From positions 758,938 to 822,937 of the forward strand of contig CAWKCK010000018.1 of the NCBI GenBank assembly GCA_963848135.1: a stretch of DNA of 64,000 nt, given 5' to 3'. This DNA comes from an uncultured delta proteobacterium. Lineage in GTDB: Bacteria; Desulfobacterota; Desulfobacteria; Desulfobacterales; SG8-13. Position numbers and translations under genes: made by a program. Below, one piece after another: positions 26,516-61,981 of the stretch (positions within the stretch are counted from its first letter, which is position 1; every line of letters starts with the position of its first letter). The notes beneath the pieces are model-generated. The model had not been told where the DNA came from. It did not search any database and saw nothing but the letters and a program-made list of their open reading frames with translations.

Positions 26516-27334
26516 TTATCCGTCGCCGTTGAGTGCTTTGACAAACTCTTCCGGTGGAACCTGAAGGCCGGTCCATAGGGCGAAGGTCCGCCGCGCCTGA
26601 TATGCGAGTGCCGGCAGACCGTCCATAAAACGAATACCCCGCGATTGTGCCATTTCGCCCCAGAAGTTATCATGACGGCCGTAGTTGAGGTCCAGGACCA
26701 ACCGGCAGTTGGGGACCTCCAGCTTTGAGACCAGGGCGGCCAGTTCGGGAGACTCATCGATACTGGACACCGCAGTGGCATTGATCACGATATCCACCGG
26801 AAGAGACCTTTGGGTCAACGCTTCCGGTTCAATGACTTCACCGCTGAAGCTGTGTACAAGTTCCAAGGCCTTTTCGCGGTTACGCCCGACCACGACAATC
26901 GATGCCGCCCGGAGCCAGTTGAGAATGAAAACGACGGCCCGAGCCGCACCGCCGGTACCGAACACCAGGGCCGATGTCCCGTCGACGTCAAATTCAGCCT
27001 CGCTCAGCGCATCCATAATCCCGATGGCATTCGTGTTGTACCCTTTCAGACGTTCCCCGTCCCGCACGATCGTGTTAACGGCACCGATGATGTTCGCGCC
27101 CTCGGAAAGAATATCCAGAAAAGGAATAACGGCCTCCTTGTAGGGGACGGTAACGTTCGCGCCGGCAATGTGCAGAATTCTGAGACTCTGAATCGCCCGC
27201 CCGAGATCCTTTGGCTCCACCATAAAAGGCACATACGTGCCTCGAATTCCCTGGCGCTTCAACATGTTGGTGAAGATCGCCGGGGATTTCAGTTGAAACG
27301 CCCGCTCGTCGCTGAGGATGCAGTATACTTTCAT
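26516..27334 (-). CDS. aroE: Shikimate dehydrogenase
   Basis: GANVTVPYKE, GAVNTI, GYNTN, GTGGAARA, INAT, DGLPAL..QA. Confidence 0.88.
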   Translation of the reverse strand: MKVYCILSDERAFQLKSPAIFTNMLKRQGIRGTYVPFMVEPKDLGRAIQSLRILHIAGANVTVPYKEAVIPFLDILSEGANIIGAVNTIVRDGERLKGYNTNAIGIMDALSEAEFDVDGTSALVFGTGGAARAVVFILNWLRAASIVVVGRNREKALELVHSFSGEVIEPEALTQRSLPVDIVINATAVSSIDESPELAALVSKLEVPNCRLVLDLNYGRHDNFWGEMAQSRGIRFMDGLPALAYQARRTFALWTGLQVPPEEFVKALNGDG

Positions 27335-27403
27335 GAGTCGGTTGGGCCCGTTGGGCCAAGTTTAGGGAATGTCAGAAATTCATTCCGATGGGCTCTTTTT
27401 ATA

Positions 27404-27530
27404 AATCCCCCAGTCCCCCTTTGTCAAAGGGGGGACTGGTAAAGACCTGGAGTGGTTTATACAGCTCTTGCGACAAGAAGGCATGCCGGAATTTAAGCGT
27501 TCCCTCCTTTCAAAAAGGAGACCAGGGGTA
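27404..27530. repeat. REP-like palindrome pair
   Basis: ccagtccccctttgtcaaaggggggactgg (27410-27439) and a degenerate partner ccctcctttcaaaaaggagaccagggg. Confidence 0.55.
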
Positions 27531-27689
27531 TATTCTACTGTCGCGCACACACGCCTATAGGAACATATTTATGACAACAGCTTTAAGTCCTCTATGTCTG
27601 TTAGACCAGCTGTTGCAGCACTCAGGCCTCATAGCCATCCGAGCTGATGCCACCAGCCTCACAGACTCAAGCGGAACCGGCCTAACCCC

Positions 27690-28994
27690 TTAAGGATACA
27701 TGTTCACTTCGGCCAGATCCGGACCCAGATAAGACCGTTCGTTTTCTCCCAGGATGCCCAGAGACAAACAAATGATGGTCCACAAATGAACCGTGTGAAA
27801 TTGGCCTTCAAAGTGCTCTTTCAAGTCGTGAATCTGAGAGTGACAGTTGTGGCAAGGGGTGATGCAATAATCAGCCCCGGTGCGATCGACCTGTTCAAAT
27901 TTCAATTTTCCGTAAGCGCGTCTGGCTTCTGGAAATCCGGACTGCAGGAATCCGCCCCCTCCACCGCAGCAGAAATTATTGGACCGATTCGGTGTCATGT
28001 CGATAAAATTTTCTTCTCCGACACAGGCCTTCACCACGAACCGCAGATCTTCAGCAATCGGGTCGCCTAGCGACTTGCGCACCAGTTGGCAGGGATCCTG
28101 CACGGTAAATTTGACGCCCAGTTTCTTGTTCCAATCGGAGTTGAGTTTAAGTTTTCCTTCACGGACCCATTGAGCATAATACTCGATGATACTTTTGACT
28201 TCGAAATCGTGAGGTATTTTAAATTTATTCAGTCCGACCCGGACTGAGAAGAATTCGTGCCCTCACTCAGTATTGAGCCAGACACTACACTTGAGATCCT
28301 CTACAACTCGGGTTTTTATGCGGACATTTTCTTCCCATTTCTCCAAATCGGCACAGAACAGGCAGTAATTTTCTGCCGCCCACCCCTTGGTGCCATAGGT
28401 CCAGTCGGCCCCCACCCGGTGCAGAATTTTCCAAAGCGGGACCATCTCGTCCGGCTCCGTCACCGGTTCGCGGGAATTTTGATTCAGGAAGAACATGGCG
28501 CCTTCTTTGTCAAGCGGAGCCGTCATATCTGCGAATTCGGGCTGGCTCTCCTGGTACTCTTCCAGCACATCCTCGACAACGAACCTGAAATCCTCTTCAG
28601 AAGCCCCCATGGCACTGCAGGTCTCATGTTTGAATGACATTTCACATGATCCCCGAATTCCCTTGGGTTGTTCTTCTTTCGCCCACCGGTTACGGACATT
28701 GAAAACCAATTGCGGGATATCGATTTTCATTGGACAAGCATAGACGCATCGCTGGCACATGGTACACATCCAGGCCCATTTGGAATTGAGAACCTCTTCG
28801 TCGAGACCAAGGGCCGCCATCCGCAGATATTTTCTGGGATCCATATCTTCCAGCCCGGAAGCCGGGCAGCCGGATGCACATAGTCCGCACGTCAAGCACG
28901 AATTCAGGTTCCCTCCTTCCGGAAGCAGGGCCATGACCTGGTCTTTGAAGGTGGGGCCGCTTTTCTTCTTCAACACGATCGCCTGATTCGACAT
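27690..28994 (-). CDS. HdrD/GlpC-like Fe-S oxidoreductase (2x[4Fe-4S] plus CCG domains), selenoprotein (Sec244)
   Basis: CLTCGLCASGCP and CTMCQRCVYACP; NTE-UGA-GH (28265-28263) matches the family ECGH motif; frame is open into QDPC...CCGGGGG...PCHNC; RBS ggagg before ATG 28994. Confidence 0.88.
28229..28247 (-). promoter_or_regulatory. SECIS hairpin
   Basis: Perfect 8-bp stem ucaguccg-GGU-cggacuga; loop at +24 from UGA. Confidence 0.8.
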
Positions 28995-29350
28995 CGATTC
29001 CTCCACAGGGATTAAGTTGTGAGTGTTGGGCCGGTTCGTCGTTCATGGGCCGCTCAAATATCTATAAAACAGGCTAAACCGACCCAACCGTGTCACCTGG
29101 ACATTTCGCCAAATGGCGGCTTTCATGGTCAAGGCATTTCGAGGCGAAACTGTTGTCCACCGAACAAATCCTGGAGTAACGCGAGCTATGGAAGCTCTCT
29201 GTTTGGCCAGCAGGGTGGACTATTTCGGCGCTTTTATCGCCTTCTTGACAGCTCCAAATACATACCGTCAGACTGTGCCAAAATGTCCAATGACAACGCG
29301 GTGTTTTACTTCCAGATCACTTGCTGAAAAGATTTCACGAAATTTTCGGG

Positions 29351-29743
29351 TCAGGCCAAATCAAGCAGTTTCTTAATGCTTTTCGTAATCTCTTCAGCCG
29401 AGGCCGGCTTGGCAATGTAATCATCCGCTTCGGTGGCCATGCCGTCGGCATGGGTATACCGGGTGGAGGTGACATGGGAAGCCACGGCTGTCAAAAGGAC
29501 AATCGGTATGTCGCAATACTTATCGTCGCCCTTGAGTTCCTGGCAAACGACGTAGCCGTCCTTCTCGGGCATCATTACATCCAGTACAATCGCATCCGGT
29601 GGATTGGCCTGGACTTTTTGCAAACCCTCGACACCGTTGTAAGCGACATCGACAGTAAAACCCTCTTTTTCAAGGTTTCCTTGCACGATAGATGCAAAAT
29701 CAGGCTCATCGTCGACAACTAAAATTCTCTTCTGCAGGTTCAT
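29351..29743 (-). CDS. Single-domain response regulator receiver
   Basis: ILVVDDE, LDVMMPEKDG, LLTA, YIAKP; RBS aggagg before ATG 29743. Confidence 0.9.
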   Translation of the reverse strand: MNLQKRILVVDDEPDFASIVQGNLEKEGFTVDVAYNGVEGLQKVQANPPDAIVLDVMMPEKDGYVVCQELKGDDKYCDIPIVLLTAVASHVTSTRYTHADGMATEADDYIAKPASAEEITKSIKKLLDLA

Positions 29744-29805
29744 AATAACCTCCTTGTTTAATGACGGGTTATTCACTTTTTCTTGTATATTGAGTTGACG
29801 GCCGA

Positions 29806-29857
29806 AAGCGAAAGGGCGCTGCGACCTCTGGCTCTTTGAACTGTTGCCCTTCGCTTT
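29806..29857 (-). terminator. Inverted repeat right after metF (possible terminator or stabilising hairpin)
   Basis: aaagcgaaagggc ... gcccttcgcttt. Confidence 0.4.
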
Positions 29858-29860
29858 GAG

Positions 29861-30793
29861 TTAATTGACACTCGGCCGCGGGAAAAGCCCGGCACGCTCC
29901 ACGATCTCCGGAACCTTTTCTTCCCACTCGATGGCCATGATGTGAAAGCCAGCGACACCTTTTACTTCTTTCAGGCGCTCGATGGCCTCGACACAGATAT
30001 TGATCCCCTCTTCGGCCTGTTTTTCTTTGGGCGTGTCGGCCAGCCGCTTGACAATGTCATCCGGCACATCCATGCCGGGAACCCTGTTCTTCATGTAGCG
30101 CGCCATCCCGACCGATTTCATCGGCGTCAGACCTGCCAGTATGAACACTTTTTCGTGCAGCCCCCGATCACACACTTTTTGCATCCAATCCTCGAACTTA
30201 TCAAGATTATAGATGCACTGGGTCTGAATGAATTCGGCCCCGGCGGCGGCTTTCTTCGCCAGCCGCGGCACGCGGATTTCATAGGGATCGGCAAAGGGGT
30301 TAGCGGCCGCACCGACGAACATCTGCGGCGGCCTCTTGATCTCGTCTCCTCCCAGAAACTTGCCATCGTCACGCATGTGGCGCACGGTTTGAATCAATTG
30401 CATCGAGTCGATATCATGCACATTCTGCCCCTGGGCACAATCACCGAAGCTCTGATGATCGCCGGACAAGCAAAGAATATTGCAAATATCGAATGAGGCG
30501 GCCCCGAGAATGTCGCTCTGAAGCGCAATCCGGTTTCGGTCACGGGTAACCATTTGCAGGATCGGCTCCAAGCCCAACATTTTGATGCGGATGCAGGCGG
30601 CCAGGCTGCACATCCGGGTCATGGACGTCTGGTTATCGGTGACATTAATGGCATCAACGTGATCCTTGATCAGGTCGGCCTTAGCGCTGATAACTTCCGG
30701 ATCGCTGCCGCGCGGTGGCCCGCACTCGGAGGTGACGGCAAAATGCCCGGCGGCCAGAATCTTCTCCAACTTGCTCGGTGTCTTGGCGTTCAT
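29861..30793 (-). CDS. metF: Methylenetetrahydrofolate reductase MetF (MetV-associated type)
   Basis: TSECGPPRG, DAINVTDN, RDRNRIALQSD, LSGDH, FIQTQ, HIMAIEWE. Confidence 0.93.
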   Translation of the reverse strand: MNAKTPSKLEKILAAGHFAVTSECGPPRGSDPEVISAKADLIKDHVDAINVTDNQTSMTRMCSLAACIRIKMLGLEPILQMVTRDRNRIALQSDILGAASFDICNILCLSGDHQSFGDCAQGQNVHDIDSMQLIQTVRHMRDDGKFLGGDEIKRPPQMFVGAAANPFADPYEIRVPRLAKKAAAGAEFIQTQCIYNLDKFEDWMQKVCDRGLHEKVFILAGLTPMKSVGMARYMKNRVPGMDVPDDIVKRLADTPKEKQAEEGINICVEAIERLKEVKGVAGFHIMAIEWEEKVPEIVERAGLFPRPSVN

Positions 30794-31458
30794 AGTTTCA
30801 AGTCCTCCCTGACCACTTTTCGCGGTCCCCCTGCCCTATCGGTGGACCAGTCCTTCAATGGGCTGATGGTTTCGTATTCGTCCATCCGGTCTAATGCCTT
30901 GAGGCGATCGACAATCAACTGCCACGCGCAATCAACGTCTTTGTTGATCTCGCATTTGCCTTCCGTAGAGCCACCGCACGGTCCGTTTAGAATCCGCTTG
31001 GCGCAGCGGGATACGGGACAAATGCTTCCGGATACCGCCAGGATGCATTGGCCGCAGCCCTGGCAGCGTTCGCTCCACACACCGCGGGCCTCGGTCGCAC
31101 CCATGAACAGGGTGTTGACACCCGGGTAGACCGGTTTTGAATGATACTTCTCGGCAGTGAATTGGACACCGACGCCGCAGGCGATGGAAACGACCGCATC
31201 GTAGTTCTCGATGCTGTCACGAATTTCCTCCAGATACTCGTGGTCGCACTGGCGTTCCAGGGTATGCTCCCCGATATTCACCTCGCTTCCCTGTTGCAGA
31301 AAGTACATTCTCAGGGCGGAAGCCAGAATACCGACTTCTTTCTTCCCGCCGGCCTCGCAAACCGTCACGCATTCATTGCAGCCCAGGACGAGAATACTCC
31401 GGAACTCCTTAATCTCATCGATGATCTCTTCTATTGGTTTCTTATCGGCAACTATCAT
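30790..31458 (-). CDS. metV: MetV, Fe-S/Zn small subunit of MTHFR
   Basis: GCNECVTVC, ERQC, ACGVGVQ, CQGCGQC..CPVSRCAK..NGPCGG..CE..CAW; overlaps metF by 4 nt. Confidence 0.9.
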   Translation of the reverse strand: MIVADKKPIEEIIDEIKEFRSILVLGCNECVTVCEAGGKKEVGILASALRMYFLQQGSEVNIGEHTLERQCDHEYLEEIRDSIENYDAVVSIACGVGVQFTAEKYHSKPVYPGVNTLFMGATEARGVWSERCQGCGQCILAVSGSICPVSRCAKRILNGPCGGSTEGKCEINKDVDCAWQLIVDRLKALDRMDEYETISPLKDWSTDRAGGPRKVVREDLKL

Positions 31459-31536
31459 AAACCCTGCCCTCCTGCGTCGCGGTTTAATACCGCCGGTTTG
31501 TTGATTCGGTCTTTAATTAACTGCGCCTCACCGCTT

Positions 31537-32004
31537 TCAGGGCTGGGCCGTCATCTCCGGACCCGCCGTTGTCGGCGCTTTCTTCATCGGGACCGATTTG
31601 ATCGGATTCGGGCCGGCCTCGAGGATCTTCGCATGCATCTCTTCGGCATAGCGAACAAAGAGCGGACCGTCACTCGAGGATAGATTGCACATCCTCACGC
31701 GATGCCCTCCGATACCGATGGTATCGAGAATCTGCTGAACCTGCTCCACCCGTTTCCTGGCCCTGAAATTCCCGCTGTTATAATGGCAATCACCTTCCCG
31801 GCAGCCGACCACATACACACCGTCGGCCCCTTTTTCAAAGGCCCGCAGGATATGGAGGCTGTCGACTTTTCCGGTACAAGGGACACGGATAATTTTGATG
31901 GATGTGGGGTACGCCATCCGCATCGAACCTGCCAGGTCCGCGGCTGTGTACCCTCAGAAGTTGCAACAAAATGCGATAATAATCGGATCAAAGTTTGACT
32001 TCAT
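31537..32004 (-). CDS. mvhD: MvhD [2Fe-2S] protein, selenoprotein (Sec17)
   Basis: ATG 32004 overlaps the hdrA stop; IIAFCCNF-UGA-GYTAADLAG (31956-31954); RVPCTGKV and GCREGDCHY. Confidence 0.9.
31925..31939 (-). promoter_or_regulatory. Putative SECIS hairpin
   Basis: ggaccu-GGC-agguuc; loop at +21 from UGA. Confidence 0.65.
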
Positions 32005-35000
32005 AGGACTCCCTCCAATAATGCTTCCACCTTGCACAGTATCTGATCGTCCTCGTACCAGTTGAGCTCAATCGCCTTGGCCGGGCATTCCGCCGCACAG
32101 ATTCCGCAGCCATGACACAGCGCCTCGTCGATTTCACTGACGCCGTCAAGGTTAATTTTCGGCACCCCGTACGGACAGGACCGAACACAAATGAGACAGG
32201 AGGCACACAAATCGGCATTTACGCACGCCGTCACGGCCGATAAAGTCAAATGCCGTTGCGACAGAAAGGTCGTGGCCCGTGAGGCGGCGGCATAGGCCTG
32301 GGCGATCGACTCGGGCAACAGTTTCGGACTGTGTGCGGTGCCACAGACGAAAATTCCCTCGGTCGCCATATCTACCGGCCGGAGTTTGACATGCGCTTCC
32401 ATGAAGTGCCCTTCGGCCGTGCGCGCCAGTTTGACGATGGAGGCCAACTCTTCGGTGTCGCTGGCCACCATACCGGCGCTCAGAGCCAGTAAATCCGCCT
32501 CGACCTGCAGGGACCGACCCAGGATATGATCGGTAAACGTCACCTGCACGCCATCCTCTGTTAATTCAGCCTGGGGGGGATTTTGTGGGTCGAAACGGCT
32601 AAAGAGCACCCCTTTCTCCCGGGCTTCTTTGTAATAATCCTCCATCAGTCCGTAGGTGCGGATATCTCGATAGAGAATAAACACCTGGGCATCCGGGTTG
32701 AGGCTCTTTATCTTGAGTGCATTTTTTACCGCACTTTGGCAGCAGATCCGGGAACAATTGGGGTTTTCCTCGTTCCTCGATCCGATGCACTGGATCATCA
32801 CGACCTGGTTCAGTCCGTCCGCACCCTGCTCCTTGAGCCGTGCCGCCAGTTCCACCTGGGTGGCGATGCGTTCGCTCTCACCGTAGAGGTACTCTTTGGG
32901 TTCGTATTCTGTAGCGCCGGTGGCCAGAATGACAACCCCGTGATCGATTTTACGCTCGTACATACCCGGGCCCACCAGTACTTCGGTCGTGAAATTTCCT
33001 TTGAAACCGGTGAATCCCACCACTATGGAACGCGTCAGGACCTGGATATCCGGATGGTCAATGACCCGCTGGCTGAGATCCTGGAGATAGGCCTGAACAT
33101 CGGCGCCCTCGATGGTGAAGGTCAGCCGGTTGGCCATTCCACCCAGTTGATCCTCTTTCTCAATCAGAACCGTCTCATACCCCTGGTCCGCCAGCCCCAG
33201 GGCGGCATTCATGCCCGCTACCCCCCCACCGATCACGACCGCGCGTTGGTTCACGGAAATCACTTTTTCCTGCAGCGGGTAAAGGGTCTCCGCCCGGGCG
33301 ACGGCCATCTGCACCAGATCATGGGCCTTGGCCGTGGCTTCCTGCGGGTCATCCGCGTGGACCCATGAGTCCTGGTTGCGGATATTGGCCATCTCCAGGA
33401 GATATTTGTTAAGCCCCACGCTTTCGAGGGTGTCCATGAAAATCCCTTCATGGGTCTTGGGCGTGCAGGCCGCCACCACCACGCGATTGAGGCGGTGTTC
33501 TTTGATGAGCGCCTTCATCTGTTCCTGGGAATCCTGACTGCAGGTAAACAGGTTCTGGCCGGCATAAACCACTCCGGGTAATTTACGGGCCGTGTCTTCA
33601 ACGGTTTTTACGTCGACGACGCCGGCAATATTGACACCGCAGTTGCAGACGAAAACCCCAACTCGCGGTTCCTCTCCGGTCACATCGATTTCTTCGGGAA
33701 TGTCCACTGACTGTGTGCGCGTGTTTCGTGCGGCGCTCAGCCGGCCGCCGGCCAGACAGGCCGCCGCACTGGCCTCGGTGACTGAGGTGGGAATATCCTT
33801 GGGAGACTGAAATACGCCGCAGGCGAATACCCCCGGCCGTGAGGTCTCCACCGGCGCAAACGGCTCGGTCACCGCGAAGTTGTAACGGTCCAGATCGATG
33901 TCCAGGCGTTGGGCCAATTCAATGGTCGATGGAGATATCTGAAGGCCCACCGACAGCACCACGATGTCGAATGTCTCCTCTTGAACCGCACCGTCTTCGT
34001 CGACATAACGGATGCGCAGGTCTTTGTTTTCACCGACTTCATCGATGGTATGTATTCGGGCTTTGACGAATCGGACACCGGCTTTGTCCCGGGCCCGCTG
34101 GTAATATTTTTCGTAGTCCTTACCGAAGGTGCGGATATCCATGTTAAAAATGGCGCAGTCCAGGTCACCATGGGCATGCTCCTTGGCGATCATGGCGTCT
34201 TTGATGGCGTACATACAGCAGACCGAAGAACAATAACCGTTGCCGCACCTGTTGGTATCTCGCGATCCGATGCATTGGAGCCAAGCGACCTTCCGCGGTT
34301 CTTGGTCATCCGAGGGACGCACCAAGTGACCTATGGTGGGCCCGGAAGCGCTCAAAATCCGCTCGAACTCGAGGCTGGTCATGACGTTGGGATTGCTCTG
34401 GTAATGATAGAAGGCTTCCAAGCCGGAAGGATCAAACGGCTCACTTCCCGGGCAGAGCACCAAGGACCCGACGTCGATATCCTTCTCCACCAATTGCTGA
34501 CTGTGGTCGACGGCTTCAGCCAAACAGGCGGAAACACATTGGTTGCATTCGCAACAGTAGCCGCAGTTCAGACACCGACCGGCCTCTGTGTGGCCGTCGG
34601 AAACCGGGTACCCCAGTTCGACCTCGTTAAAATTACCGGCCCGTTGGTCGACGGCCAGCGCCGGCATCTCCCTGCGGCGCGCGATGGAGACATCCTCCGG
34701 AATCGGACGATAGACCGGATTTTCGTTCGAAAGAGGCTGACGCTCAGCCGTCAGATCCTTCCCATCCAGATAGCGGATGATAGACTCGGCGGCCTCGCGA
34801 CCGGCAGCGATGGCGCCAATGGCAATCCAGGGTCCGGTCTGCAGGTCACCGCCGGCAAAGACCCCCGGCCGCCCGGTGGCGTAGGAGACAGCATCCACTT
34901 CGACCGTGCCCCAGCGTGAAAAATCCAACCCGCTCACGTCTTCAAGCCCGGACAGGTCGGGTCGTTGACCGATGGCGGGTATCAGCTGGTCGATCTCGAT

Positions 35001-36452
35001 GTCGTATTCGCTTCCCGGAATGGGCACCGGCCGCTTGCGTCCGGAGGAATCCGGCTCCGTTAATTTCATGCGGATGCAGCGCAGACCGACAACCCGGCCA
35101 TCCTCGGCGAGTATTTCCTGGGGGGCGGCCAGATACGAGACGGTCACCCCTTCGGCCTCTGCGGCAGCAATTTCCTCCTCCCAGGCCGGCATCTCCGCCC
35201 GGGTGCGGCGGTAGATAATGCTAACCTCTGCGGCACCCAGCCTAACGGCCGCGCGCGCCACATCGATGGCAACGTTACCACCACCGATAATGGCCACCTT
35301 TTTCCCGACCGCGGCTGTGCCGGTCAGGTTGACTTCGCGCAAGAAATCGACGCCTTGTCGAACACCCCTGGATTTCTCACCGGGAATCCCCAGGTCAAAG
35401 CCCTTGTGAGCGCCCAGGGCCAGGTAAACAGCGCTGAAGCCGCGGTCGAAGAGATCATCGACACTCAAATCCGGACCCAAGGGAGTGCTGGTTTTGATTT
35501 CCACCCCCAGATTGGTGATAACCTCGATTTCCTGGTCAAGAATATCTCGGGGCAGCCGATGGGCCGGGATGCCGACGCGAAGCATTCCGCCGGCTTGAGG
35601 CAGGGCTTCAAAAATGGTAGATAATACGCCTCGGCGTGCCAGGTGATAGGCGGCGGAAAGCCCCGCTGGACCCGATCCGATGATGGCCGCCTTTTCTTTG
35701 CGGGGCGCTGGGCGGGCAATCTCGATCTGCCGGGGATCAAATTGATCGGCGGCCAACCGTTTGAGATCCCGGATGGCGACCGGATCATCGACGTCACAGC
35801 GACGGCAGGCATCCTCGCATCCATGGGGACAAATCCTTCCCAGCACACCGGGAAGGGGCAGTTCTTCCATAATAATGTCGAGCGCCTCTTTATATTTACC
35901 CTCCCGAACCATTTGGACGTAACCCTGGACATTCAGGCCGGCCGGGCAGGCCAAGCGACAAGGGGCCTTGTCGCACTTCTCGATGGCAAAGGCACCCGGA
36001 ATGGCCTGCGCATACTTCTTGTATGCGGCTTTCCTCACGGACAGCCCTTCGTCGTATTCGTTGGGCAGCTCTACGGGACAGACCTTGGTGCACTCACCAC
36101 AACTGGTGCATTTGGAAAGGTCGATGAAGCGGGGTTTTTGGCGGATACGGGCCTTGAAACGCCCCGGTTCCCCCTTGAGGTTGAGAAGTTCGGTGTTTGT
36201 CAGAAGCTCGATGTTCAGGTGCCGGCCGACCTCGACCAGTTTGGGCGAGATAATTCACATGGCACAATCATTGGTGGGAAACGTCTTGTCGAGCTGCGAC
36301 ATCAGGCCGCCGATAGCCGATGATTTTTCGACGAGATAGACGTAATAGCCTGAATTGGCCAAATCGAGAGCGGACTGCATGCCGGCGATTCCGCCGCCGA
36401 GAACCATTACCGCTCCGACCGTCTGGTTATCCTTTTCGATAGTAACGTCCAT
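32001..36452 (-). CDS. hdrA: HdrA-like flavoprotein with inserted GltD/NfnB-like NAD(P)H module (HdrL type), selenoprotein (Sec66), ~1483 aa
   Basis: VLGGGIAG...[20 protein letters not shown] (36257-36255), open into ORF 32001..36038; [39 protein letters not shown]; two QCIGSR...CSxxCC HdrA repeats; C-terminal ferredoxin. Confidence 0.92.
36222..36239 (-). promoter_or_regulatory. SECIS hairpin
   Basis: cuggucg-AGGU-cggccgg; GG at +24; identical in all three hdrA genes. Confidence 0.75.
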
Positions 36453-36461
36453 ATTTCCCCC

Positions 36462-37331
36462 CTATATTTTTTCCAGAACCTCAGGAAGCCTGTGCTCCCA
36501 TCCTATGGTGGACAAAAGAACCCCGTTGAATCCATCCCGTTTGAGAGTGGAAACCATTTCGGCCGCAACCTGGATGCACTCGCGCACCTTGTCCGGAGCA
36601 CGCCGGATCCGCTCGATGATGGTATCCGGAATGTGGATGTGCGGCATGTTCTGGGCGATGTAGCGCGCCATCCCCAGGGACTTGAGCAGCAGCACGGTGG
36701 GCACGACGAAATATTTGCGTCGATCGATCCGTTTGAGGAACGGTTCGATGTCGGCAATGTCAAACAGCGGCGGTGTGATGAAAAAACGGGCCCCGGCTTC
36801 AGCGCGCTTCATCATCTCCTCCAGCTCAACTTCGGGAGATTTGCCCCTGGCGCCGGCGCCGGCGGTAGAGCCGACCAGAAATTCCGGGGCGCCGGCCAGT
36901 TCGATCCCGGCCATGTCACGCCCTGCCTGAAGCTGTTGAACAGTCGACAGCAGTTCAATCAGGTCGATGTCATAGACGGATCGGGCCTGGTGATGATCAC
37001 CAAAACTCGGATCTTCGCCACTGACCGCCATGACGTTTTCTATTCCAAGAGCAGAAGCCGCCAGAAGATCGGCCTGAAGGGCCAGACGGTTTCGATCCCG
37101 GCAACAGATTTGAAAGACGGTCGGTAAACCCTCTTTCTGCAAAACCATTGCGCCACCCAGCGAACTCATCCGCATCACGGCGTTGCTCATCTCCGGAACA
37201 ACGAACGCGTCGATTCTGTCTTTGACCTTCTTGGCACAGGCGATCATCATACCGGCGTTGGCGCCCTTGGGGGGCTCCATCTCCGCAAGCACGGCAAATT
37301 CATTTGCCTCGAATTTGCGTTTTAGATCCAT
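36462..37331 (-). CDS. Divergent MetF/MTHFR-family paralogue
   Basis: AEMEPPKG, RDRNRLALQADLL, GDH, C-terminal GWE; several motifs altered relative to metF at 29861. Confidence 0.85.
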   Translation of the reverse strand: MDLKRKFEANEFAVLAEMEPPKGANAGMMIACAKKVKDRIDAFVVPEMSNAVMRMSSLGGAMVLQKEGLPTVFQICCRDRNRLALQADLLAASALGIENVMAVSGEDPSFGDHHQARSVYDIDLIELLSTVQQLQAGRDMAGIELAGAPEFLVGSTAGAGARGKSPEVELEEMMKRAEAGARFFITPPLFDIADIEPFLKRIDRRKYFVVPTVLLLKSLGMARYIAQNMPHIHIPDTIIERIRRAPDKVRECIQVAAEMVSTLKRDGFNGVLLSTIGWEHRLPEVLEKI

Positions 37332-37469
37332 CAGCTTTCCTCCGTTTGTTTGGAAATGCGAAACATTTGCGCAGCTAAATCGAGATATTCTTGCCTTATT
37401 TGAAATGACATTTGCGATGTTCGGATGGTGTAATCAATTGCGGAAATGGATCATTGATCGTGTTCTTCA

Positions 37470-37484
37470 GCAATAAGCATACCA
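37470..37484 (-). promoter_or_regulatory. Sigma54 (-24/-12) promoter of the metF'-hdrA-mvhD-metV-metF operon
   Basis: TGGTATGCTTATTGC = GG-N10-GC on the minus strand; divergent sigma54 activator adjacent. Confidence 0.75.
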
Positions 37485-37573
37485 TCACCGGCAAATAGTT
37501 AATAATACAAATAATTACAGTTAATTATGAAATTTAAAGTTATAAAAACAGGTGTATAAATCATTGATTAAAC

Positions 37574-37661
37574 TATGCCAAAATGGCCCATAGCCTTTTT
37601 TTGTGGACAATTTCAATACGTTTACCTATTATGCCAATTTGGAATAGGCCAAAATGGCATA
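37574..37661. promoter_or_regulatory. Three palindromic operator/UAS sites TATGCCA-N3-TGGCATA
   Basis: tatgccaaaatggccca 37574-90, tatgccaatttggaata 37630-46, taggccaaaatggcata 37645-61. Confidence 0.7.
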
Positions 37662-37678
37662 ATCTCTGAGGGGATACA

Positions 37679-39049
37679 ATGACAACGAGAATATTGGTCG
37701 TCGATGACGATCGGGACTATCTGGAACTAATGAAAGCGCGACTGACGGGGGCCGGTTTTCAGAAAATACGGGTAGAGGATGATCCTCTTAAGGCCGCCGC
37801 GCTGGTTCTATCGGAGGAAATCTTTGACATCGCCCTGATCGACATGACGATGCCGGAGATGGACGGGCTGCAACTGCTCGATATCTTCAAAAACAATAGC
37901 CCGGGGACCGATTGTATCATTGTGACGGCGGTGAACGAGGCCCGTGTGGCCGTTCAGTGCCTCAGAAAAGGGGCTTACGATTATCTGGTCAAACCGATCA
38001 GCGAGGAAGATCTCGTCTTTTCTCTCAAACGGGCTCTCGAAAAAAGACGCCTTGTGGAAATTTTGGATATCGAAAAGAGTCGAAAACTACCCGTTTTGAC
38101 CAATCCGGAGGCCTTCCGGTCGATCATCACCCGTTCGGCGCGGATGATGCGGCTTTTGAAAGAGGCTGAACTGCACGCCGCCAGTGTGATGCCGATTCTC
38201 ATTACCGGAGAAAGCGGAACCGGTAAAGAACTGCTTGCGCGGGCAATCCACGCTACCAGCCCGCGGGCCCGCTATCCTTTTATGCCCGTCAATATGGCGG
38301 CCATCAATGCCCACCTCTTCGAGGCGGAATTTTTCGGCCACACCCGGGGCGCCTTCACCGGAGCGGAAAAGGACCGGGCCGGTTATCTGAAAAATGCCCA
38401 CCACGGTACACTGTTTCTGGATGAAATCGGCAATCTGCCCCAGGCGATGCAAGCCAAGCTGTTACGCGTGCTTCAGGACGGTGAATACAATCAGCTGGGT
38501 TCGAGCATCAGCCTCAAGGCTGACGTGCGTTTGGTCGCGGCCACCAACGAAAGCCTGGAAGAAATGATATCCCAACAAAGGTTTCGCAAAGATTTGTACT
38601 ATCGGATCAAGGGCGGATGGCTCCATCTGCCTCCTCTCAGGGAAAGGGTGGAAGACATACCCCTACTGGTGGATCGCTTTCTGGACGACTATTGCGACCC
38701 CTCCCGGCAGTGCCGCATTGATGATGAGACCCTCTGCTTGTTAAGCCAATACGATTATCCCGGCAATATCCGGGAACTCAAATCCATCATCCAGTCCGCC
38801 GTGAATCTTTCCCAAGGAAAGGACATTACAGCCAGATTTTTCCCTGAGGAGCTGCGTCAGCACGTAGCGGTGACACATTGCGCACAGCCTGTTGATTCCG
38901 AAGCGATTGCGCCCCTGTCCCAGATCGAAAAATCCCATATTTTGGATGCCTACAGCCGCCTGAGCGGCAATAAGTCTCAAACCGCTCGGGTTCTCGGCAT
39001 CGGGTTGAACACTTTGAGAAGAAAGTTGAAGTCCTATGGCATGAACTAG
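37679..39049 (+). CDS. Sigma54-dependent response regulator (NtrC family)
   Basis: Receiver, GESGTGKE, GAFTGA, LFLDEIG, YPGNIREL, Fis-type HTH. Confidence 0.94.
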   Translation: MTTRILVVDDDRDYLELMKARLTGAGFQKIRVEDDPLKAAALVLSEEIFDIALIDMTMPEMDGLQLLDIFKNNSPGTDCIIVTAVNEARVAVQCLRKGAYDYLVKPISEEDLVFSLKRALEKRRLVEILDIEKSRKLPVLTNPEAFRSIITRSARMMRLLKEAELHAASVMPILITGESGTGKELLARAIHATSPRARYPFMPVNMAAINAHLFEAEFFGHTRGAFTGAEKDRAGYLKNAHHGTLFLDEIGNLPQAMQAKLLRVLQDGEYNQLGSSISLKADVRLVAATNESLEEMISQQRFRKDLYYRIKGGWLHLPPLRERVEDIPLLVDRFLDDYCDPSRQCRIDDETLCLLSQYDYPGNIRELKSIIQSAVNLSQGKDITARFFPEELRQHVAVTHCAQPVDSEAIAPLSQIEKSHILDAYSRLSGNKSQTARVLGIGLNTLRRKLKSYGMN

Positions 39050-40574: not shown

Positions 40575-41153
40575 ATGGCACTTGACACTTTGAATTCTTC
40601 TGACCGTAGATCAGACCAAAACGCTTCAAGCCATCAACCACCCCAAAAGACCGCCAAATTCCGCTTGGCCCCGCTGCCCTTTTTGCTGACGTTTCTGATC
40701 TTATTTGCTTTCTGGTTGATCTTTTCCGGTAAATTCGATCCTTTTCACATCTTTCTTGGAGTCGTCAGTTGCCTGATCGTGGCGGCCCTGTCCAGCGATC
40801 TGTTTTTTTCATCTCCTATCGACTGGAGACTGTTCATGAGCTGGATCAGATTCGTCGGCTATATCCCCTGGCTTCTCTATCAGGTTTTTCTGGCCAACCT
40901 GCACGTTCTCTACTTAACATTTCATCCCAAGTTGATAGAAAAGATCGATCCACACATCATCACCTTCGACAGCCATTTGCAGAGCGACGTAGCACGCACG
41001 ACCTTTGCGAATTCAATCACCTTAACACCCGGCACCATTACGGTCTCAGTCAATGTGATGGGCAGATTTTCCGTTCACTGCATTGATAGGCCATCGGGGC
41101 AGGCGCTTCCCGGCGAGATGGAACGCCGCGTCGGCCTCGTATTCAAAGAATAA
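40575..41153 (+). CDS. mnhE: Na+/H+ antiporter subunit E
   Basis: FANSITLTPGTITV motif. Confidence 0.9.
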   Translation: MALDTLNSSDRRSDQNASSHQPPQKTAKFRLAPLPFLLTFLILFAFWLIFSGKFDPFHIFLGVVSCLIVAALSSDLFFSSPIDWRLFMSWIRFVGYIPWLLYQVFLANLHVLYLTFHPKLIEKIDPHIITFDSHLQSDVARTTFANSITLTPGTITVSVNVMGRFSVHCIDRPSGQALPGEMERRVGLVFKE

Positions 41154-41440
41154 TGGAACAGACCTTCTTAATTGCCAGTATAATTATATCCCTCCTGATG
41201 TTTCTATCGCTGTATCGTGCGGTGAGTGGTCCGACGGTTCTCGACCGCCTGATCGGTGTGAACGCCATGGGCAGTAAGACGACGACCCTGTTGGTTCTGA
41301 TCGGCTTGCTCTATCAGCGTGTCGACATGTTCGTCGATATCGCACTGGCCTACGCCATGTTGAATTTTATCGCCGTGCTGGCGGCATCCCGATACTTCCA
41401 AAAAAGAAAAGGACTCTATGACGAAGGCGCTCAACAGTAG
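41153..41440 (+). CDS. mnhF: Na+/H+ antiporter subunit F
   Basis: GPTVLDRLIG, DIALAYAMLNF. Confidence 0.9.
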   Translation: MEQTFLIASIIISLLMFLSLYRAVSGPTVLDRLIGVNAMGSKTTTLLVLIGLLYQRVDMFVDIALAYAMLNFIAVLAASRYFQKRKGLYDEGAQQ

Positions 41441-41514
41441 CGGATGGGTCCAGCGACAGTCCTTTTTCGCCGGCATCAATTGATGGGTAAAACCTAAAAG
41501 ACGGACTTGGTACA

Positions 41515-41856
41515 ATGATCATCCTATTCATACTTCTTTTAATGTGCGGCCTCGTTTTTTTCACTGGCGGTACATTGGGAATTCTGCGCTTCCCGGATTT
41601 TTACACCCGACTGCACCCGGCCGGCAAACTGGACACTTTCGGCCTGGTGACCACAATGGGCGCGCTATCTACCTACGTGATGTTTTCTCAACACCAACCA
41701 CTAACGGCATTGAAGATCGTTCTGATCGTTGTGTTTGTCTTTATTACAAGCCCGACAGCAACCCATGCGATCGTCGATGCCGGGGTGCGGGCCGGTCTCA
41801 GGCCATGGAAAAAAGACACTTCCAACGCAGAGGCAAGAGATGTTCTGGCAGATTGA
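41515..41856 (+). CDS. mnhG: Na+/H+ antiporter subunit G
   Basis: GILRFPDFYTRLH, TSPTATHAI. Confidence 0.9.
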   Translation: MIILFILLLMCGLVFFTGGTLGILRFPDFYTRLHPAGKLDTFGLVTTMGALSTYVMFSQHQPLTALKIVLIVVFVFITSPTATHAIVDAGVRAGLRPWKKDTSNAEARDVLAD

Positions 41857-42085
41857 ATTCATTATATTCACCATCGTGATCATCTTAGCCGTCGGTGCCA
41901 TATCTGTTAGAGACCTGCTGAGCGCAGCGATTCTGTTCGGGGCATACAGTTTCATGATGTGCCTGGTATGGGCTATCATGGGAGCCGTGGATGTCGCATT
42001 CACTGAAGCATCGGTGGGGGCTGGTATCAGCACGGTTTTGTTTGTTGCCGCCGTTTTTCGCACTTCGAGAAGGACCAAAGATTGA
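41840..42085 (+). CDS. Mnh subunit, DUF4040 (MrpA C-terminal/MnhB-associated) domain
   Basis: AVDVAFTEASVGAGIST motif; ATG 41840. Confidence 0.85.
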   Translation: MFWQIEFIIFTIVIILAVGAISVRDLLSAAILFGAYSFMMCLVWAIMGAVDVAFTEASVGAGISTVLFVAAVFRTSRRTKD

Positions 42086-42912
42086 AAGCGGGCGCGTTAA
42101 TAGTGGTCGTCATCCTTGGAGCCGTTCTGATTTTCTGTTCGCACGGGTTCCCTCCGTGGGGCGATCCCGAATCGCCGGCCAGTCGCCATGTGTCACCGTA
42201 TTACATAGAGAAAACGATGCGAGATACATCTGTGCCCAACATCGTTACCGCTGTTCTGGCCGATTACCGGGGGTACGATACCATGTTCGAAACGATCGTC
42301 ATCTTCACGGCCGGAATCGCCTGTATCTTTCTACTGCGAACACCTCAAAAGACCAAAACCGAAACGCGGTTGTATCGCCACGTTCCCACCGGTATTACCC
42401 TTCGTATCGAAAAGGGCGGCAAATTTCCCAAAGATTCAATTGATTTCGAACGAATCGATTCCGAGTGGGTTCCTTACGACCTGATCGTCAAAACCACGTG
42501 TCGACTGATCGTGCCGTTTATACAACTTTTCGCCTTGTACGTCATCGCCCACGGCCACTACAGCCCTGGAGGGGGATTCCAAGGCGGCGTGATCCTGGGT
42601 GCCGCAACCTTGCTTCTGGCCGTGGCTTTCGACTTACGTTCGGCCAAACGCAGATTGAGTGAAAAAATGACCGCCTTTTTAGGTATCCTGGGTGTGTTCA
42701 TCTATGCTGGAACTGGCATCGTCTGCATGCTTTTAGACGCTAATTATTTAGATTACAGTGCCCTGGCGCCCCTTTTAGGGGTCGATTCGATCAGCGCCAG
42801 ATCTTATGGTATTCTAATCGTAGAGGTTGGCGTCGGCATGGCGGTGATGGCCGTAATGGTAATGCTCTACTACAATATCTCCTCAGCGGGCAAACAGGAC
42901 GAGGGATTGTAG
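42082..42912 (+). CDS. mnhB: Na+/H+ antiporter subunit B
   Basis: NIVTAVLADYRGYDTMFE and GHYSPGGGFQGG. Confidence 0.9.
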   Translation: MKAGALIVVVILGAVLIFCSHGFPPWGDPESPASRHVSPYYIEKTMRDTSVPNIVTAVLADYRGYDTMFETIVIFTAGIACIFLLRTPQKTKTETRLYRHVPTGITLRIEKGGKFPKDSIDFERIDSEWVPYDLIVKTTCRLIVPFIQLFALYVIAHGHYSPGGGFQGGVILGAATLLLAVAFDLRSAKRRLSEKMTAFLGILGVFIYAGTGIVCMLLDANYLDYSALAPLLGVDSISARSYGILIVEVGVGMAVMAVMVMLYYNISSAGKQDEGL

Positions 42913-42914
42913 TT

Positions 42915-43316
42915 ATGGATGCTTCCAGCAGTATGCCGATCGCCTATGCCAACTACTGGGTGTTTGTTATTTTGATGATGATTGGTCTGTACGCCATCAT
43001 CGTCAAAAAAAACCTGGCCAAGAGGGTCATCGGTCTGAACATCCTCCAGACGGCTGTTATCCTGTTTTTTATCTCCATCGGTGCCAAGCAGAAGGCTACC
43101 ATCCCCATCATCGAACATGTTCACGACATCTCTCGAGTGGCGATCGAGGCCAGAAACTACATCAATCCTCTACCCCATGTGTTGATGCTCACCGCCATCG
43201 TGGTCGCCGTCGCCACGTTCGGGGTGTCCATGGCACTGATCATCAAAATCTATGCGCGGTACGGCACGTTGGAAGAGGATGAAATTATCGAATTAAGCCG
43301 TGATATCGAGACATAG
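42915..43316 (+). CDS. mnhC: Na+/H+ antiporter subunit C
   Basis: NPLPHVLMLTAIVV. Confidence 0.9.
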   Translation: MDASSSMPIAYANYWVFVILMMIGLYAIIVKKNLAKRVIGLNILQTAVILFFISIGAKQKATIPIIEHVHDISRVAIEARNYINPLPHVLMLTAIVVAVATFGVSMALIIKIYARYGTLEEDEIIELSRDIET

Positions 43317-43398
43317 AATCAGAGGTTCGAATGGTATCGTGATCACCCTTTAAGAAAATGAAGGCCGTTCGTTGCTCCAAATAACGCTGAGGTCGCAG

Positions 43399-43876
43399 AT
43401 GATAACCAGGGCAACTTTGAAAGAAATGGTGATGCTGGGGTATCTAACCGATGAAATGCTCGATCAGCTGATTCCCATCACCGAAATGCTCCAGTTTGAC
43501 GAGCAAGAATTCGTCTTTCACCAGGGTGAAGACGCCAGTCGATTTTATTTCGTTCATCAGGGCAAGGTCCTTTTAGAACAGCGTATTTCACCTACCATCT
43601 CCATAACCCTCAGTGCCATCAATCCACGTTACTCTTTTGGCTGGACGGCGCTTCTGGACAGCGGAAAGTATACCACCTATGCCCTTTGCGCGGAGCCCTG
43701 TCAGCTGCTCTCGTTTCCGAGAGGATAAATTAAAGGCACTTTTCGACAAAAACCATTCTCTTGGCTACATCATGAGTCAGCGGCTATTGCGCGTCATTCA
43801 GAAACGATATGAAATCCGTACCGAGCAGTTCATCAAGGCCATCCGACACCATCCGGATCTCGGCAACCTGATATAG
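43399..43876 (+). pseudogene. Stand-alone cyclic-nucleotide-binding (Crp-type) domain protein, one +1 frameshift near 43715 as assembled
   Basis: VFHQGEDASRFYFVHQGKV...SFGWTALL; continues +1 as FREDKLKALFDKNHSLGYIMSQRLL. Confidence 0.75.
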
Positions 43877-43980
43877 ACAGTACCCGACTATCAATCTGGC
43901 AATTGAAATTAAGATTCATTGTGAATTGAAACAGAAGACCACCCCCCTACTCGGCACACTCACTCGCGGAAGGATGGATA

Positions 43981-45487
43981 ATGGATCAATTCCCGGCCAT
44001 TATCGTGATCGCACCACTGATCGCCACCTTTTTTATTTTCTTTTTGGGCTGGCAGAATCAAAGGTTGGCCTTCCCCCTGGCCCTGAGCGGCCTCTCGGTG
44101 TGTGTTCTTGCAGCAGTGGTTGCCGCGAACACCGTAGTGCAGCAAGGACCGGTCCAGTACCGATTTGGTGGGTGGCCCCCTCCCTGGGGAATCGAATACC
44201 GCGTCGATCATTTGACCGTTTTCATGCTGATCCTGATCTCACTGATCGGTTGGCTGTCCGCCATCTATGCCCAAAAGAGCGTTGAGCAAGAACTGCCGGA
44301 TAAGGTCTCCTTGTTCTGGAGTCTTTATATGCTGCTGATCACGGGTCTGCTCGGAATCGTTATCACCGGCGATATGTTCAACCTCTTCGTTCTCCTCGAG
44401 GTTGCCTCCATAAGTGGTTACGCATTAGTGGCCATCGGGCGCGGCAGAGCGCCCTTCGCCAGCTTTCGATACCTCATCATCGGAACCATCGGCACCTCCT
44501 TCTATCTTTTGGGTATCGGTTTTCTATATATTGTCACTGGTTCTTTAAACATGGAAGATCTACGCCTGCTTTTGCCTCCGATTTACGGATCTCGGGTTGT
44601 CCAAGCCGCCTTCGTCTTCATATTCATCGGTTTTGCCGTCAAAATCGCCCTGTTTCCGCTGCACGGCTGGCAACCGGATGTCTATACTTACGCACCGTCT
44701 GCCGTCAGCGTCATCATCTCCACCGCTGCGGCCAAAACCTTTGTTTATGCTCTGATCCGCATCGTTTTCTCGGTGTTCACGCTTGACTTTATTACTGGAA
44801 TCCTCTCGGTATTCAGCATCATTTGTTGGGTGGCGGCAGTCGCCATGATCGTCGGTTCCATCTTTGCCATCGCGCAGTATAACCTCAAGCGTATGCTGGC
44901 CTATTCAAGCATAGCCAATATCGGATATATCATTCTGGCCCTTGGACTTGCCCCTTCGACGTCCCTTGGATTGTCACCGGCCGTGATGCACATTGCCAAC
45001 CATGCGGTGATCAAAGGATGCATGTTCATGACCGCCTGCGGGTTCATCTACAAATACGATTTGAAGGACATTCGGTATTTTACCGGACTTGGAAGGCGGA
45101 TGCCCTATACCTCTCTGGGCCTGATCTTAGCCTCCCTGGCGATGATCGGAATGCCGCCGGGGTCTGGGTTCGTCACCAAATGGTATCTCATCAGGGCAGC
45201 GTTGGAGGCCCGCAGCTACTGGTTTGTGGCCGTCATCTTCGTCAGTACCCTATTGATGATCGTCTACTTCTGGCGGGTTATCGAGATTATGTACATTCGC
45301 CACGAAACCGAATCCGCCGTCGAATCAGCCGGCAATAAGAATCGAAGAATTGCCGGCGAGCATGCTCGTTCCCGGTTTGATTTTGGGAGTTATGTCATTC
45401 CTTCTGGGTATCCTTTGGATATCTGGTATTCTCGATCCGGTACTTGCGGCCATCAACACCGGTTTCGGACTGGGGGGCGGGCCATGA
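43981..45487 (+). pseudogene. mnhD: MnhD/MrpD antiporter subunit 1, +1 frameshift near 45325 as assembled
   Basis: GDMFNLFVLLE, KIALFPLHGWQPD, KRMLAYSS; C-terminus resumes +1 as IEELPASMLVPGLILG...GGGP*, ATGA-coupled to the next gene. Confidence 0.8.
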
Positions 45488-47001: not shown

Positions 47002-47017
47002 CAGGGGAAATCAGATC

Positions 47018-47209
47018 ATGGGAGAACTTGTTCGACAGGGAGAGGAAATTGTATACCGCCAGATGGACGGTGAAATTACAGCCCGGTTAACCGATTTTGA
47101 GGAAAAAATGGAACTGGTTCACCAGGGATCACCCCAATACAAACATATTTTGCGTCTGCTGGTCGTGGCCAGTGTTGTCTATCTGATAGCCATTTTCATT
47201 TTTTACTAG
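47018..47209 (+). CDS. Small membrane protein in mnh cluster
   Basis: 63 aa, one C-terminal TM, RBS-like ggggaa, tightly packed in the operon. Confidence 0.5.
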   Translation: MGELVRQGEEIVYRQMDGEITARLTDFEEKMELVHQGSPQYKHILRLLVVASVVYLIAIFIFY

Positions 47210-47221
47210 AAGGTGATCGCC

Positions 47222-51058: not shown

Positions 51059-51105
51059 CAAACCCATGGTAAAATGGCAACCCAACACAAGAAAGGGTGA
51101 GACAA

Positions 51106-52104: not shown

Positions 52105-52218
52105 AGGACAGAGTCAACCGGGTGAAGCGCTATAAATCAAATATAACGACCTAAGAAAGAATCCGACCGTTCACCCAACGGATTGTGCGTCACCCTTGAA
52201 TATGAGGAGAGTCGAACC

Positions 52219-61970: not shown

Positions 61971-61981
61971 GGAGTTTGTTT

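Follow-up and report, generated by a model that had tools for sequence, protein, structure and literature searches.

Gene content and layout of the locus

We analyzed a 64,000-nucleotide stretch of DNA (the window; contig CAWKCK010000018.1, positions 758,938 to 822,937) from the genome of an uncultured delta proteobacterium of the Desulfobacterales (assembly GCA_963848135.1; 6.03 Mb, 18 contigs, 98.65% complete). At 29861-37484 the window carries five closely packed minus-strand genes, recognized from open reading frame (ORF) calls and translations, that encode a divergent paralog of methylene-tetrahydrofolate (methylene-THF) reductase (MetF'), a very large HdrA-type flavoprotein (HdrL), MvhD, MetV, and the reductase subunit MetF (Table 1). 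All five genes lie where the original prediction, which was made from the DNA letters, had placed a tightly packed metF'-hdrA-mvhD-metV-metF unit. The hdrL stop overlaps the mvhD start and metV overlaps metF, each through the four nucleotides ATGA, and the remaining spacings are 9 nucleotides (metF'-hdrL), 78 nucleotides (mvhD-metV), and 84 nucleotides between metF and a receiver gene that follows on the same strand. MetF comes directly after MetV, and MvhD and HdrA are in the same unit, as in a type IV (Hdr-type) methylene-THF reductase. The MvhD protein also matched the NCBIfam family VhuD (E value, 1.5e-50; 171 bits), under the 215-bit cutoff, and mean column identities among 27 orthologs were 86% for MetV and 89% for MetF. 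A terminator scan found no convincing intergenic terminator between metF' and an hdrD-like gene that lies downstream of the receiver gene; terminator-like sites numbered 15, against 10.7 +/- 3.2 in shuffles, and a sigma-70 promoter scan likewise returned nothing above shuffles.

Table 1. Features of the hdrL-mvhD-metVF locus and of related elements in the window
Feature	Position	Strand	Description
NtrC-type sigma-54 activator	37679-39049	+ (divergent)	Receiver, AAA+, and HTH_8; Pfam Sigma54_activat (E value, 1.4e-64), Response_reg
Sigma-54-type -24/-12 element	37469-37484	-	TGGTATGCTTATTGCT; about 140 nucleotides upstream of metF'; pattern match with 2 mismatches
metF'	36462-37331	-	289 amino acids; divergent MetF paralog; Pfam PF02219 (E value, 2.4e-27)
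hdrL	32001-36452	-	1,483 amino acids; tandem double HdrA with NfnB-like insert; Sec66; Pfam Pyr_redox_2 (E value, 1.7e-62)
UGA, Sec66 of HdrL	36255-36257	-	NDCAMUIISPK; from translation
SECIS-like hairpin of hdrL	36222-36239	-	CUGGUCG-AGGU-CGGCCGG; starts 18 nucleotides past the UGA; from folding
NfnB/GltD-like insert of HdrL	34569-35975	-	Residues 160-628 (about 470 residues), in the inserted ferredoxin domain of module 1
Second HdrA module of HdrL	32004-33695	-	Residues 920-1483; N-terminal, FAD, and C-terminal 2x[4Fe-4S] ferredoxin domains
mvhD	31537-32004	-	155 amino acids; Sec17; Pfam PF02662 (MvhD/FlpD; E value, 1.3e-47)
UGA, Sec17 of MvhD	31954-31956	-	CCNFUGY; from translation
metV	30790-31458	-	222 amino acids; Fe-S/zinc subunit of MetVF-type reductases; Pfam PF12225 (E value, 5.7e-37)
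metF	29861-30793	-	310 amino acids; catalytic methylene-THF reductase subunit; Pfam PF02219 (E value, 8.7e-36)
Receiver gene	29351-29776	-	141 amino acids; single-domain response regulator; PF00072 (E value, 3.8e-24)
hdrD-like HdrC-HdrB fusion	27690-28994	-	434 amino acids; Sec244; Pfam Fer4_8/Fer4_17 and CCG
UGA, Sec244 of HdrD-like protein	28263-28265	-	NTEUGHEF; occupies the position of the first CCG motif
Second Hdr-type methylene-THF reductase cluster	58108-64000 and past the window end (contig 817045-827430)	+	

Conservation of the gene order

Relatives were sought in one genome per species. At least 629 related stretches were found, and the best 80 of these gave 74 loci with 51 to 96% amino acid identity to HdrL; gene order was counted only where a contig reached far enough. 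Nearly all of these loci are labeled as Desulfobacterales, Desulfobacteraceae, or delta-proteobacterial metagenome-assembled genomes (MAGs), together with one from the Anaerolineales and one from the Nitrospinaceae. mvhD follows hdrL in 72 of the 74 loci, and the complete series hdrL-mvhD-metV-metF is intact in 55 of the 59 loci that could be assessed; three more have an hdrD gene directly between mvhD and metV, and one has no such order. Because the gene order is kept across dozens of genomes, the operon arrangement is beyond chance. A synteny survey had been proposed as a check on the original prediction, and its outcome agrees with the predicted core.

Domain structure of HdrL

HdrA families matched HdrL at E values of 1e-200 to 2e-279, all under their full-length cutoffs because the layout of HdrL is unusual; the NCBIfam model HdrA2 gave 929 bits (E value, 2.2e-279) against a cutoff of 1100 bits. 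Alignment to solved HdrA chains resolved two HdrA modules in tandem. Residues 15 to 159 and 629 to 841 (module 1) correspond to HdrA residues 146 to 290 and 297 to 505, that is, to the flavin domain and its inserted ferredoxin domain, and no stretch of module 1 aligned to the N-terminal domain or to the C-terminal ferredoxin domain of solved HdrA. Residues 920 to 1105 and 1306 to 1479 (module 2) correspond to HdrA residues 3 to 188 and 480 to 653.

The inserted GltD/NfnB-like module with a YRR motif that had been predicted for HdrA was recovered by family searches and by alignment to solved chains. NCBIfam PRK12771 (GltD-like, NAD(P)-binding) scored 582 bits over residues 159 to 667, against a cutoff of 516, and Pfam Fer4_20 matched residues 149 to 239. 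The insert has the parts of an NfnB/GltD-type module, with N-terminal cysteine motifs for two [4Fe-4S] clusters, Rossmann folds for FAD (GSGPAGL at residue 259) and NAD(P)H (GGGNVA at residue 390), and YRRT at residue 414. It aligns over its full length with 9BOV_A (E value, 8e-129), 9N5U_A, and 8OH5_C and end to end with NfnB of Thermotoga (4YLF_B) and NfnI-L of Pyrococcus (5JCA_L), the comparison chains being of the NfnB, NfnI-L, and StnC-like types. YRRT stands opposite that of HdrL in all five aligned chains, all of them from NADPH-type enzymes. The insert closes with a segment homologous to the NfnB N terminus, a feature shared with 9BOV_A, 8OH5_C, and 9N5U_A. Taken as a whole, HdrL has three predicted flavin sites and one predicted nicotinamide site. 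An HdrA protein that is fused to a GltD-like NAD(P)H/FAD module and encoded just ahead of mvhD is what the passages on HdrL in PMC2702500 describe, and the protein studied here has this composition.

Selenocysteine

Three in-frame UGA codons are read as selenocysteine (Sec) in the translations of hdrL, mvhD, and the hdrD-like gene. Sec66 of HdrL stands opposite Cys197, the second Cys of NDCSIC, in M. wolfeii HdrA (alignment to 5ODC_A). Among the related loci, the aligned codon is TGA in 67 of 74 for HdrL (TGT in one, GCC in one, gaps in five), in 71 of 72 for MvhD (TGC in one), and in 27 of 28 for the HdrD-like protein (TGC in one).

The hdrL UGA is followed by a hairpin resembling a selenocysteine insertion sequence (SECIS). 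Across 32 sequences (the window and 31 of 65 distinct loci, with proteins down to approximately 52% identity), nucleotides 16 to 38 past the UGA do not vary even at wobble positions, whereas the flanking codons do. No compensatory changes are possible in this hairpin because no position varies; the invariance is an RNA-level constraint, as expected of a bacterial SECIS. Folding also gave a hairpin downstream of the mvhD UGA, and the hairpin of the hdrD-like gene (28230-28246) has compensatory changes at three of its seven pairs (27 sequences). A search of Rfam returned no match in 27000-38000 at E values up to 1. The genome encodes SelB, with a score above the curated cutoff, and one tRNA-Sec. 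The UGA codons are thus aligned with Cys in homologs, followed by hairpins, and accompanied by SelB and tRNA-Sec, as in bacterial selenoproteins, and the use of UGA that had been predicted for HdrA and MvhD is upheld. Reading the UGAs as true stops or pseudogene breaks was rejected on the strength of their conservation, the hairpins, and the Sec machinery.

The HdrD-like selenoprotein and the receiver gene

The hdrD-like gene lies two genes downstream of the core on the same strand, past the receiver gene and a spacing of 356 nucleotides, and was broken in the plain ORF list by the third in-frame UGA. Pfam placed a 4Fe-4S dicluster domain and CCG on the two halves of its product; the cluster contains no separate hdrB or hdrC gene and has this fused gene instead. 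The predicted absence of HdrB and HdrC holds for the tight core, but a selenocysteine-containing HdrC-HdrB fusion lies close by. The order metF-receiver-hdrD is found in 21 of 44 assessable related loci, and 12 related loci have aroE immediately after the receiver gene and lack hdrD there. Five genomes without a clustered hdrD were checked, and four of them have HdrD orthologs elsewhere (67 to 73% identity; TGA in three), one of which sits within an HdrA-MvhD-HdrD-MetV-MetF cluster; the HdrD query found no ortholog in the fifth, a 2.2-Mb MAG. Two of the five also have HdrD copies of approximately 58% identity in the arrangement MetF-like, HdrD, HdrL. HdrD is a recurrent, not a fixed, neighbor of the core, and its dismissal as an unrelated neighbor was rejected on the evidence of synteny and of its internal position in paralogous clusters.

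The HdrL proteins of the MetF-like-HdrD-like-HdrL loci in other genomes are 55% identical to the HdrL studied here over residues 5 to 496, a range that includes much of the NfnB-like insert, which suggests a further family of HdrL/HdrD/MetF-like modules. The receiver gene comes after metF in 46 of 57 assessable loci. It encodes a stand-alone CheY-like protein, located between metF and hdrD or aroE, and has no adjacent kinase gene.

MetF'

Identity between MetF' and MetF is 33%. When 64 MetF and 50 MetF' sequences were aligned, MetF' was seen to retain only 41 of the 143 MetF columns that are conserved at 95% or more, and the motifs TDNQT, SGD, QTQ, and AGxTP of MetF are changed to PEMSN, SGE, ITP, and PTVLL, respectively. 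MetF' accordingly lacks the residue set of a catalytic MetF, although its match to Pfam MTHFR is still above the cutoff. We take the Asp of SGD and the Gln of TQ to be Asp120 and Gln183 of Escherichia coli MetF, which act in folate binding and catalysis. hdrL is immediately preceded by metF' in 43 of 58 assessable loci, and a genome search found no second copy of MetF'. The 65 columns that are invariant among 27 orthologs rule out a decaying pseudogene. As MetF' is itself well conserved, its sequence identifies it as a functional, specialized paralog.

Genome context and paralogous clusters

A cluster for acetyl-CoA synthase and carbon monoxide dehydrogenase (ACS/CODH) approximately 115 kb away on the same contig encodes AcsB, two CdhD-type corrinoid subunits (AcsC/D), RACo, and an AcsE-like pterin-binding methyltransferase, which substantiates the Wood-Ljungdahl context assumed in the original prediction. 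DsrA was found in the genome above its cutoff. The genome contains six MTHFR-family matches, three of which belong to MvhD-MetV-MetF sets.

One of the other two sets is part of a second Hdr-type cluster (Table 1), with the order double HdrA, MvhD, double HdrA (Sec), MvhD, HdrD (Sec), MetV, MetF. The second HdrA of this cluster lacks the insert and is 63.5% identical to HdrL over residues 11 to 158 and 60.4% over residues 599 to 1480. Because it equals HdrL minus the insert, the insert appears to be a discrete added nicotinamide module. The partner proteins in the second cluster are 62% (MetF), 47% (MetV), 65% (MvhD), and 71% (HdrD) identical to those studied here. An MvhD paralog of the second cluster (61221-61640, plus strand) has its in-frame TGA at a different Cys (VAGUHFGDCHY) from that of CCNFUGY, so Sec positions differ between MvhD paralogs. 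The third MvhD-MetV-MetF set lies on another contig, beside glutamate-synthase-like genes. Further genes in the genome comprise at least two insert-bearing hdrL genes and at least six genes for insert-less double HdrA proteins.

Promoter and regulation

An NtrC-type activator gene is divergent from the operon, and its orthologs (58 to 93% identity) are likewise divergent upstream in many related loci. A sigma-54-type element precedes metF'. The relaxed sigma-54 pattern is not enriched across the window (36 matches versus 29.6 expected); the GG-N10-GC block of the element is kept in the two closest loci, and 10 of 39 related loci have a perfect TGG-N8-TTGCW upstream of metF', versus 0.22 expected from shuffles. 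Expression of the operon is probably sigma-54 dependent and activated by the divergent NtrC-type protein. Between metF' and the divergent gene for the activator, the intergenic DNA at 37540-37680, upstream of the sigma-54-like element, contains repeated GCCATTTTGGC/CCAAATTGGCA-like half-palindromes, which may serve as enhancer-binding sites.

Other features of the window

A plus-strand gene at 19961-21301 encodes a pyridine nucleotide-disulfide oxidoreductase of the CoA-disulfide reductase/NADH oxidase type. The plain ORF starts late; read through one TGA, the product gains an N-terminal FAD motif and SYSAUGLPY, and it is probably another selenoprotein, with the Sec presumably at the position of the active-site Cys. 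Two adjacent plus-strand genes (51097-52104 and 52183-53145) encode proteins of approximately 320 to 335 amino acids in which a glycine-cleavage H-protein (lipoyl) domain occupies the C-terminal third only, and the N-terminal parts have no Pfam match. An Mrp/Mnh-type antiporter-like set at 40575-49233 (plus strand) comprises MnhE, MnhB, a NuoK-like protein, and two Proton_antipo_M proteins and is interrupted by a gene for a small protein with a cyclic-nucleotide-binding domain (43372-43728).

Comparison with known systems

The type IV reductase of Moorella thermoacetica, MetFV-HdrABC-MvhD, was copurified as six proteins, in which MetF carries the methylene-THF site and HdrA carries the NADH site and two FAD (PMC5861303, PMC8760232). 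The likeness to this enzyme on which the original prediction was built is sound, as MetF, MetV, MvhD, and an HdrA-type nicotinamide flavoprotein occur in one unit here as well, with HdrC/HdrB-type sequences nearby, in a Wood-Ljungdahl context, and with a mechanism that is presumed to be flavin based in both. Unlike in Moorella, HdrB and HdrC are fused as an HdrD-like protein, which lies outside the tight core and is linked to it in about half of the relatives, and an extra, altered MetF paralog and three selenocysteines are present. HdrL further combines a tandem double HdrA with an NfnB-like insert; for Moorella HdrA, the comparison is with its description in a review (two FAD).

HdrL of Desulfobacterium autotrophicum HRM2 was named in 2009 as a fusion of HdrA and glutamate synthase (Strittmatter et al., PMC2702500). 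According to the passages of that paper on HdrL, it too is a large fusion with an NADH-type site; two of its three copies contain Sec, and mvhD always comes next. Those passages place HdrL with dsr genes and with the reduction of sulfite and do not join it to metF, nor do they map its domains (double HdrA, insert position); a literature search for HdrL together with MetF led to this paper alone. Associations of Hdr, MvhD, and MetVF outside acetogens have been described as hdrA-mvhD-metVF-hdrCB in marine Chloroflexi (PMC5736913) and as metF-HdrABC in Seep-SRB1g (PMC10553843). Common features of those clusters and the present one are a fused HdrCB and, in DscP3, two-component regulator genes beside metF; the descriptions of the clusters in those two papers mention neither Sec nor an NfnB-like insert nor MetF'. 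HdrA9-11 of ANME-1 have an NfnB-like insertion of approximately 500 amino acids at the same domain position, in an inserted ferredoxin domain, and two possible bifurcation sites, with NADPH proposed as the carrier (PMC9012536). Unlike HdrL, they are archaeal and are set in a coenzyme M/coenzyme B heterodisulfide context, and the account of them in PMC9012536 mentions neither a tandem double HdrA nor a shared locus with metVF. HdrL, the type IV reductase (2014), Hdr-MvhD-MetVF clusters, and NfnB-inserted HdrA are therefore already in print; what is added here is a residue-level map of HdrL, a Sec-containing HdrD gene with variable linkage, the divergence of MetF', and a twin cluster without the insert.

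Proposed function

The gene content, domain layout, Sec decoding signals, synteny, and pathway context seen at this locus fit, with a probability of about 0.6, a variant of the Moorella-like type IV MetVF reductase that would couple NAD(P)H, a low-potential carrier, and methyl/methylene-THF in a Wood-Ljungdahl sulfate reducer. By homology, MetF would perform the methylene-/methyl-THF chemistry, and MetV and the [2Fe-2S] protein MvhD would form a single-electron relay. HdrL, a covalently fused pair of HdrA modules with an FAD motif in each, would be the electron hub of the complex that we infer for these products. Through the NfnB-like insert, HdrL would gain one further FAD (the third), two additional [4Fe-4S] clusters, and a binding site for NAD(P)H, probably NADPH. 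Reportedly, the structure of M. wolfeii HdrA places the insert position on the branch that leads to ferredoxin in methanogen HdrA; since the insert is on this branch, the NfnB-like flavin could be either an input site or a second bifurcation site.

The reaction, which would be close to equilibrium, is proposed to be 2 NAD(P)H + oxidized low-potential carrier + methylene-THF = 2 NAD(P)+ + reduced carrier + methyl-THF, with either ferredoxin or flavodoxin as the carrier. The direction would be methyl-THF oxidation (confurcation) when acetyl-CoA is oxidized and reduction during CO2 fixation. In the oxidative mode, reduced ferredoxin (approximately -450 mV) could drive the oxidation of methyl-THF (-200 mV) with NAD(P)+ (-320 mV) as the acceptor. 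The HdrD-like selenoprotein, a frequent partner, could add a thiol/disulfide branch. The standard free energy change of the proposed Moorella reaction is close to -5 kJ/mol (PMC5861303), so a homologous enzyme could run either way.

Several observations weigh against this assignment. NADH-dependent methylene-THF reduction was not seen with the Moorella enzyme (PMC5861303, PMC8760232), ferredoxin failed or was not confirmed as its second acceptor (PMC8760232, PMC13040438), and menaquinol was proposed as a co-reductant in 2026, in an account that treats the Moorella reaction as not fully understood (PMC13040438). The predicted link to NADPH is plausible, as YRR aligns with that of enzymes of the NADPH type, to which all of the comparators belong. 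hdrD is off the cluster in 23 of the 44 assessable relatives, so its membership is uncertain. MetF' is without most MetF-invariant residues and is not explained by the proposed mechanism. The role of a Wood-Ljungdahl reductase that had been predicted for the operon is consistent with its gene content and with the presence of the pathway, but it is not the sole candidate: there are three MetVF sets, none of which adjoins ACS/CODH genes, and the set studied here therefore need not be the catabolic enzyme.

The same complex might instead have a thiol/disulfide (e.g., DsrC) or a quinone-linked carrier as its third partner, reached through the HdrD-like selenoprotein, in which case methyl-group electrons would feed sulfite reduction, with NADP(H) as a co-substrate. 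We consider this unlikely. In its favor, the HdrC-HdrB fusion has its Sec in the first CCG motif and shares the strand of the core, keeps its place in 21 of 44 loci and stands directly between mvhD and metV in 3 more, and has orthologs elsewhere in four of the five checked genomes that lack it in the cluster, one of them internal to a MetVF cluster and, in two genomes, with the copies of approximately 58% identity placed between MetF-like and HdrL genes. The failure of ferredoxin with the Moorella enzyme and the proposal of a membrane or quinone partner (PMC8760232, PMC13040438) are in keeping with such a carrier, and HdrL-type complexes are tied to DsrC in the discussion of PMC5947623. Against it, the receiver gene and the 356-nucleotide gap part hdrD from the core, the 12 relatives with aroE after the receiver gene do without hdrD there, and a Pfam scan found no dsrC or quinone-interacting gene in the cluster.

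The MetVF could also be a plain NAD(P)H-dependent reductase for which HdrL and MvhD are only an input wire, in the manner of RnfC2 in Acetobacterium woodii, whose enzyme is of type III. Enzymes of that type show that a nicotinamide-binding subunit can simply be added to MetVF (PMC8760232), and the insert alone would bring NAD(P)H, FAD, and two clusters. This is nevertheless improbable, as it leaves two complete HdrA flavin modules, MvhD, and three conserved selenocysteines unexplained; moreover, methyl-THF oxidation with NAD(P)+ would be endergonic (-200 versus -320 mV), a problem if the pathway runs oxidatively. It is more improbable still that HdrL-MvhD and MetVF are mere neighbors, with MetVF a ferredoxin-dependent type II enzyme and HdrL-MvhD serving another partner, as its paralogs in this genome do. 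Type II MetVF does act alone in clostridia (PMC8760232), and the genome has the additional HdrL and double HdrA genes at other loci, but the core order in 55 of 59 assessable loci is kept over 51 to 96% protein identity, MvhD-MetV-MetF is kept together in the two other sets of the genome, and the Moorella subunits copurify (PMC5861303).

A bolder extension of the bifurcating NAD(P)H-linked reductase, which we regard as distinctly unlikely, is that HdrL joins NfnB-type and HdrA-type bifurcating flavin sites in one polypeptide and, with MetVF, MvhD, and Sec-HdrD, would form a four-substrate hub for NADPH, a low-potential carrier, methyl/methylene-THF, and a thiol/disulfide carrier, with MetF' as a second, noncanonical pterin or flavin site. 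If this were true, the pair of insert-bearing and insert-less clusters would be a natural experiment on the second acceptor of type IV reductases.

Significance

Of the energetic steps in the Wood-Ljungdahl pathway, that of methylene-THF reductase is understood least, and in 2026 a second electron partner for the Hdr-type enzyme was still being sought (PMC13040438). The operon described here is widespread in sediment genomes labeled as Desulfobacterales, and the occurrence of an NAD(P)H module and an insert-less paralog in one genome makes it a good target for purification and cryo-electron microscopy. Whether or not energy is conserved at this step changes estimates of the ATP yield of complete-oxidizing and autotrophic sulfate reducers.

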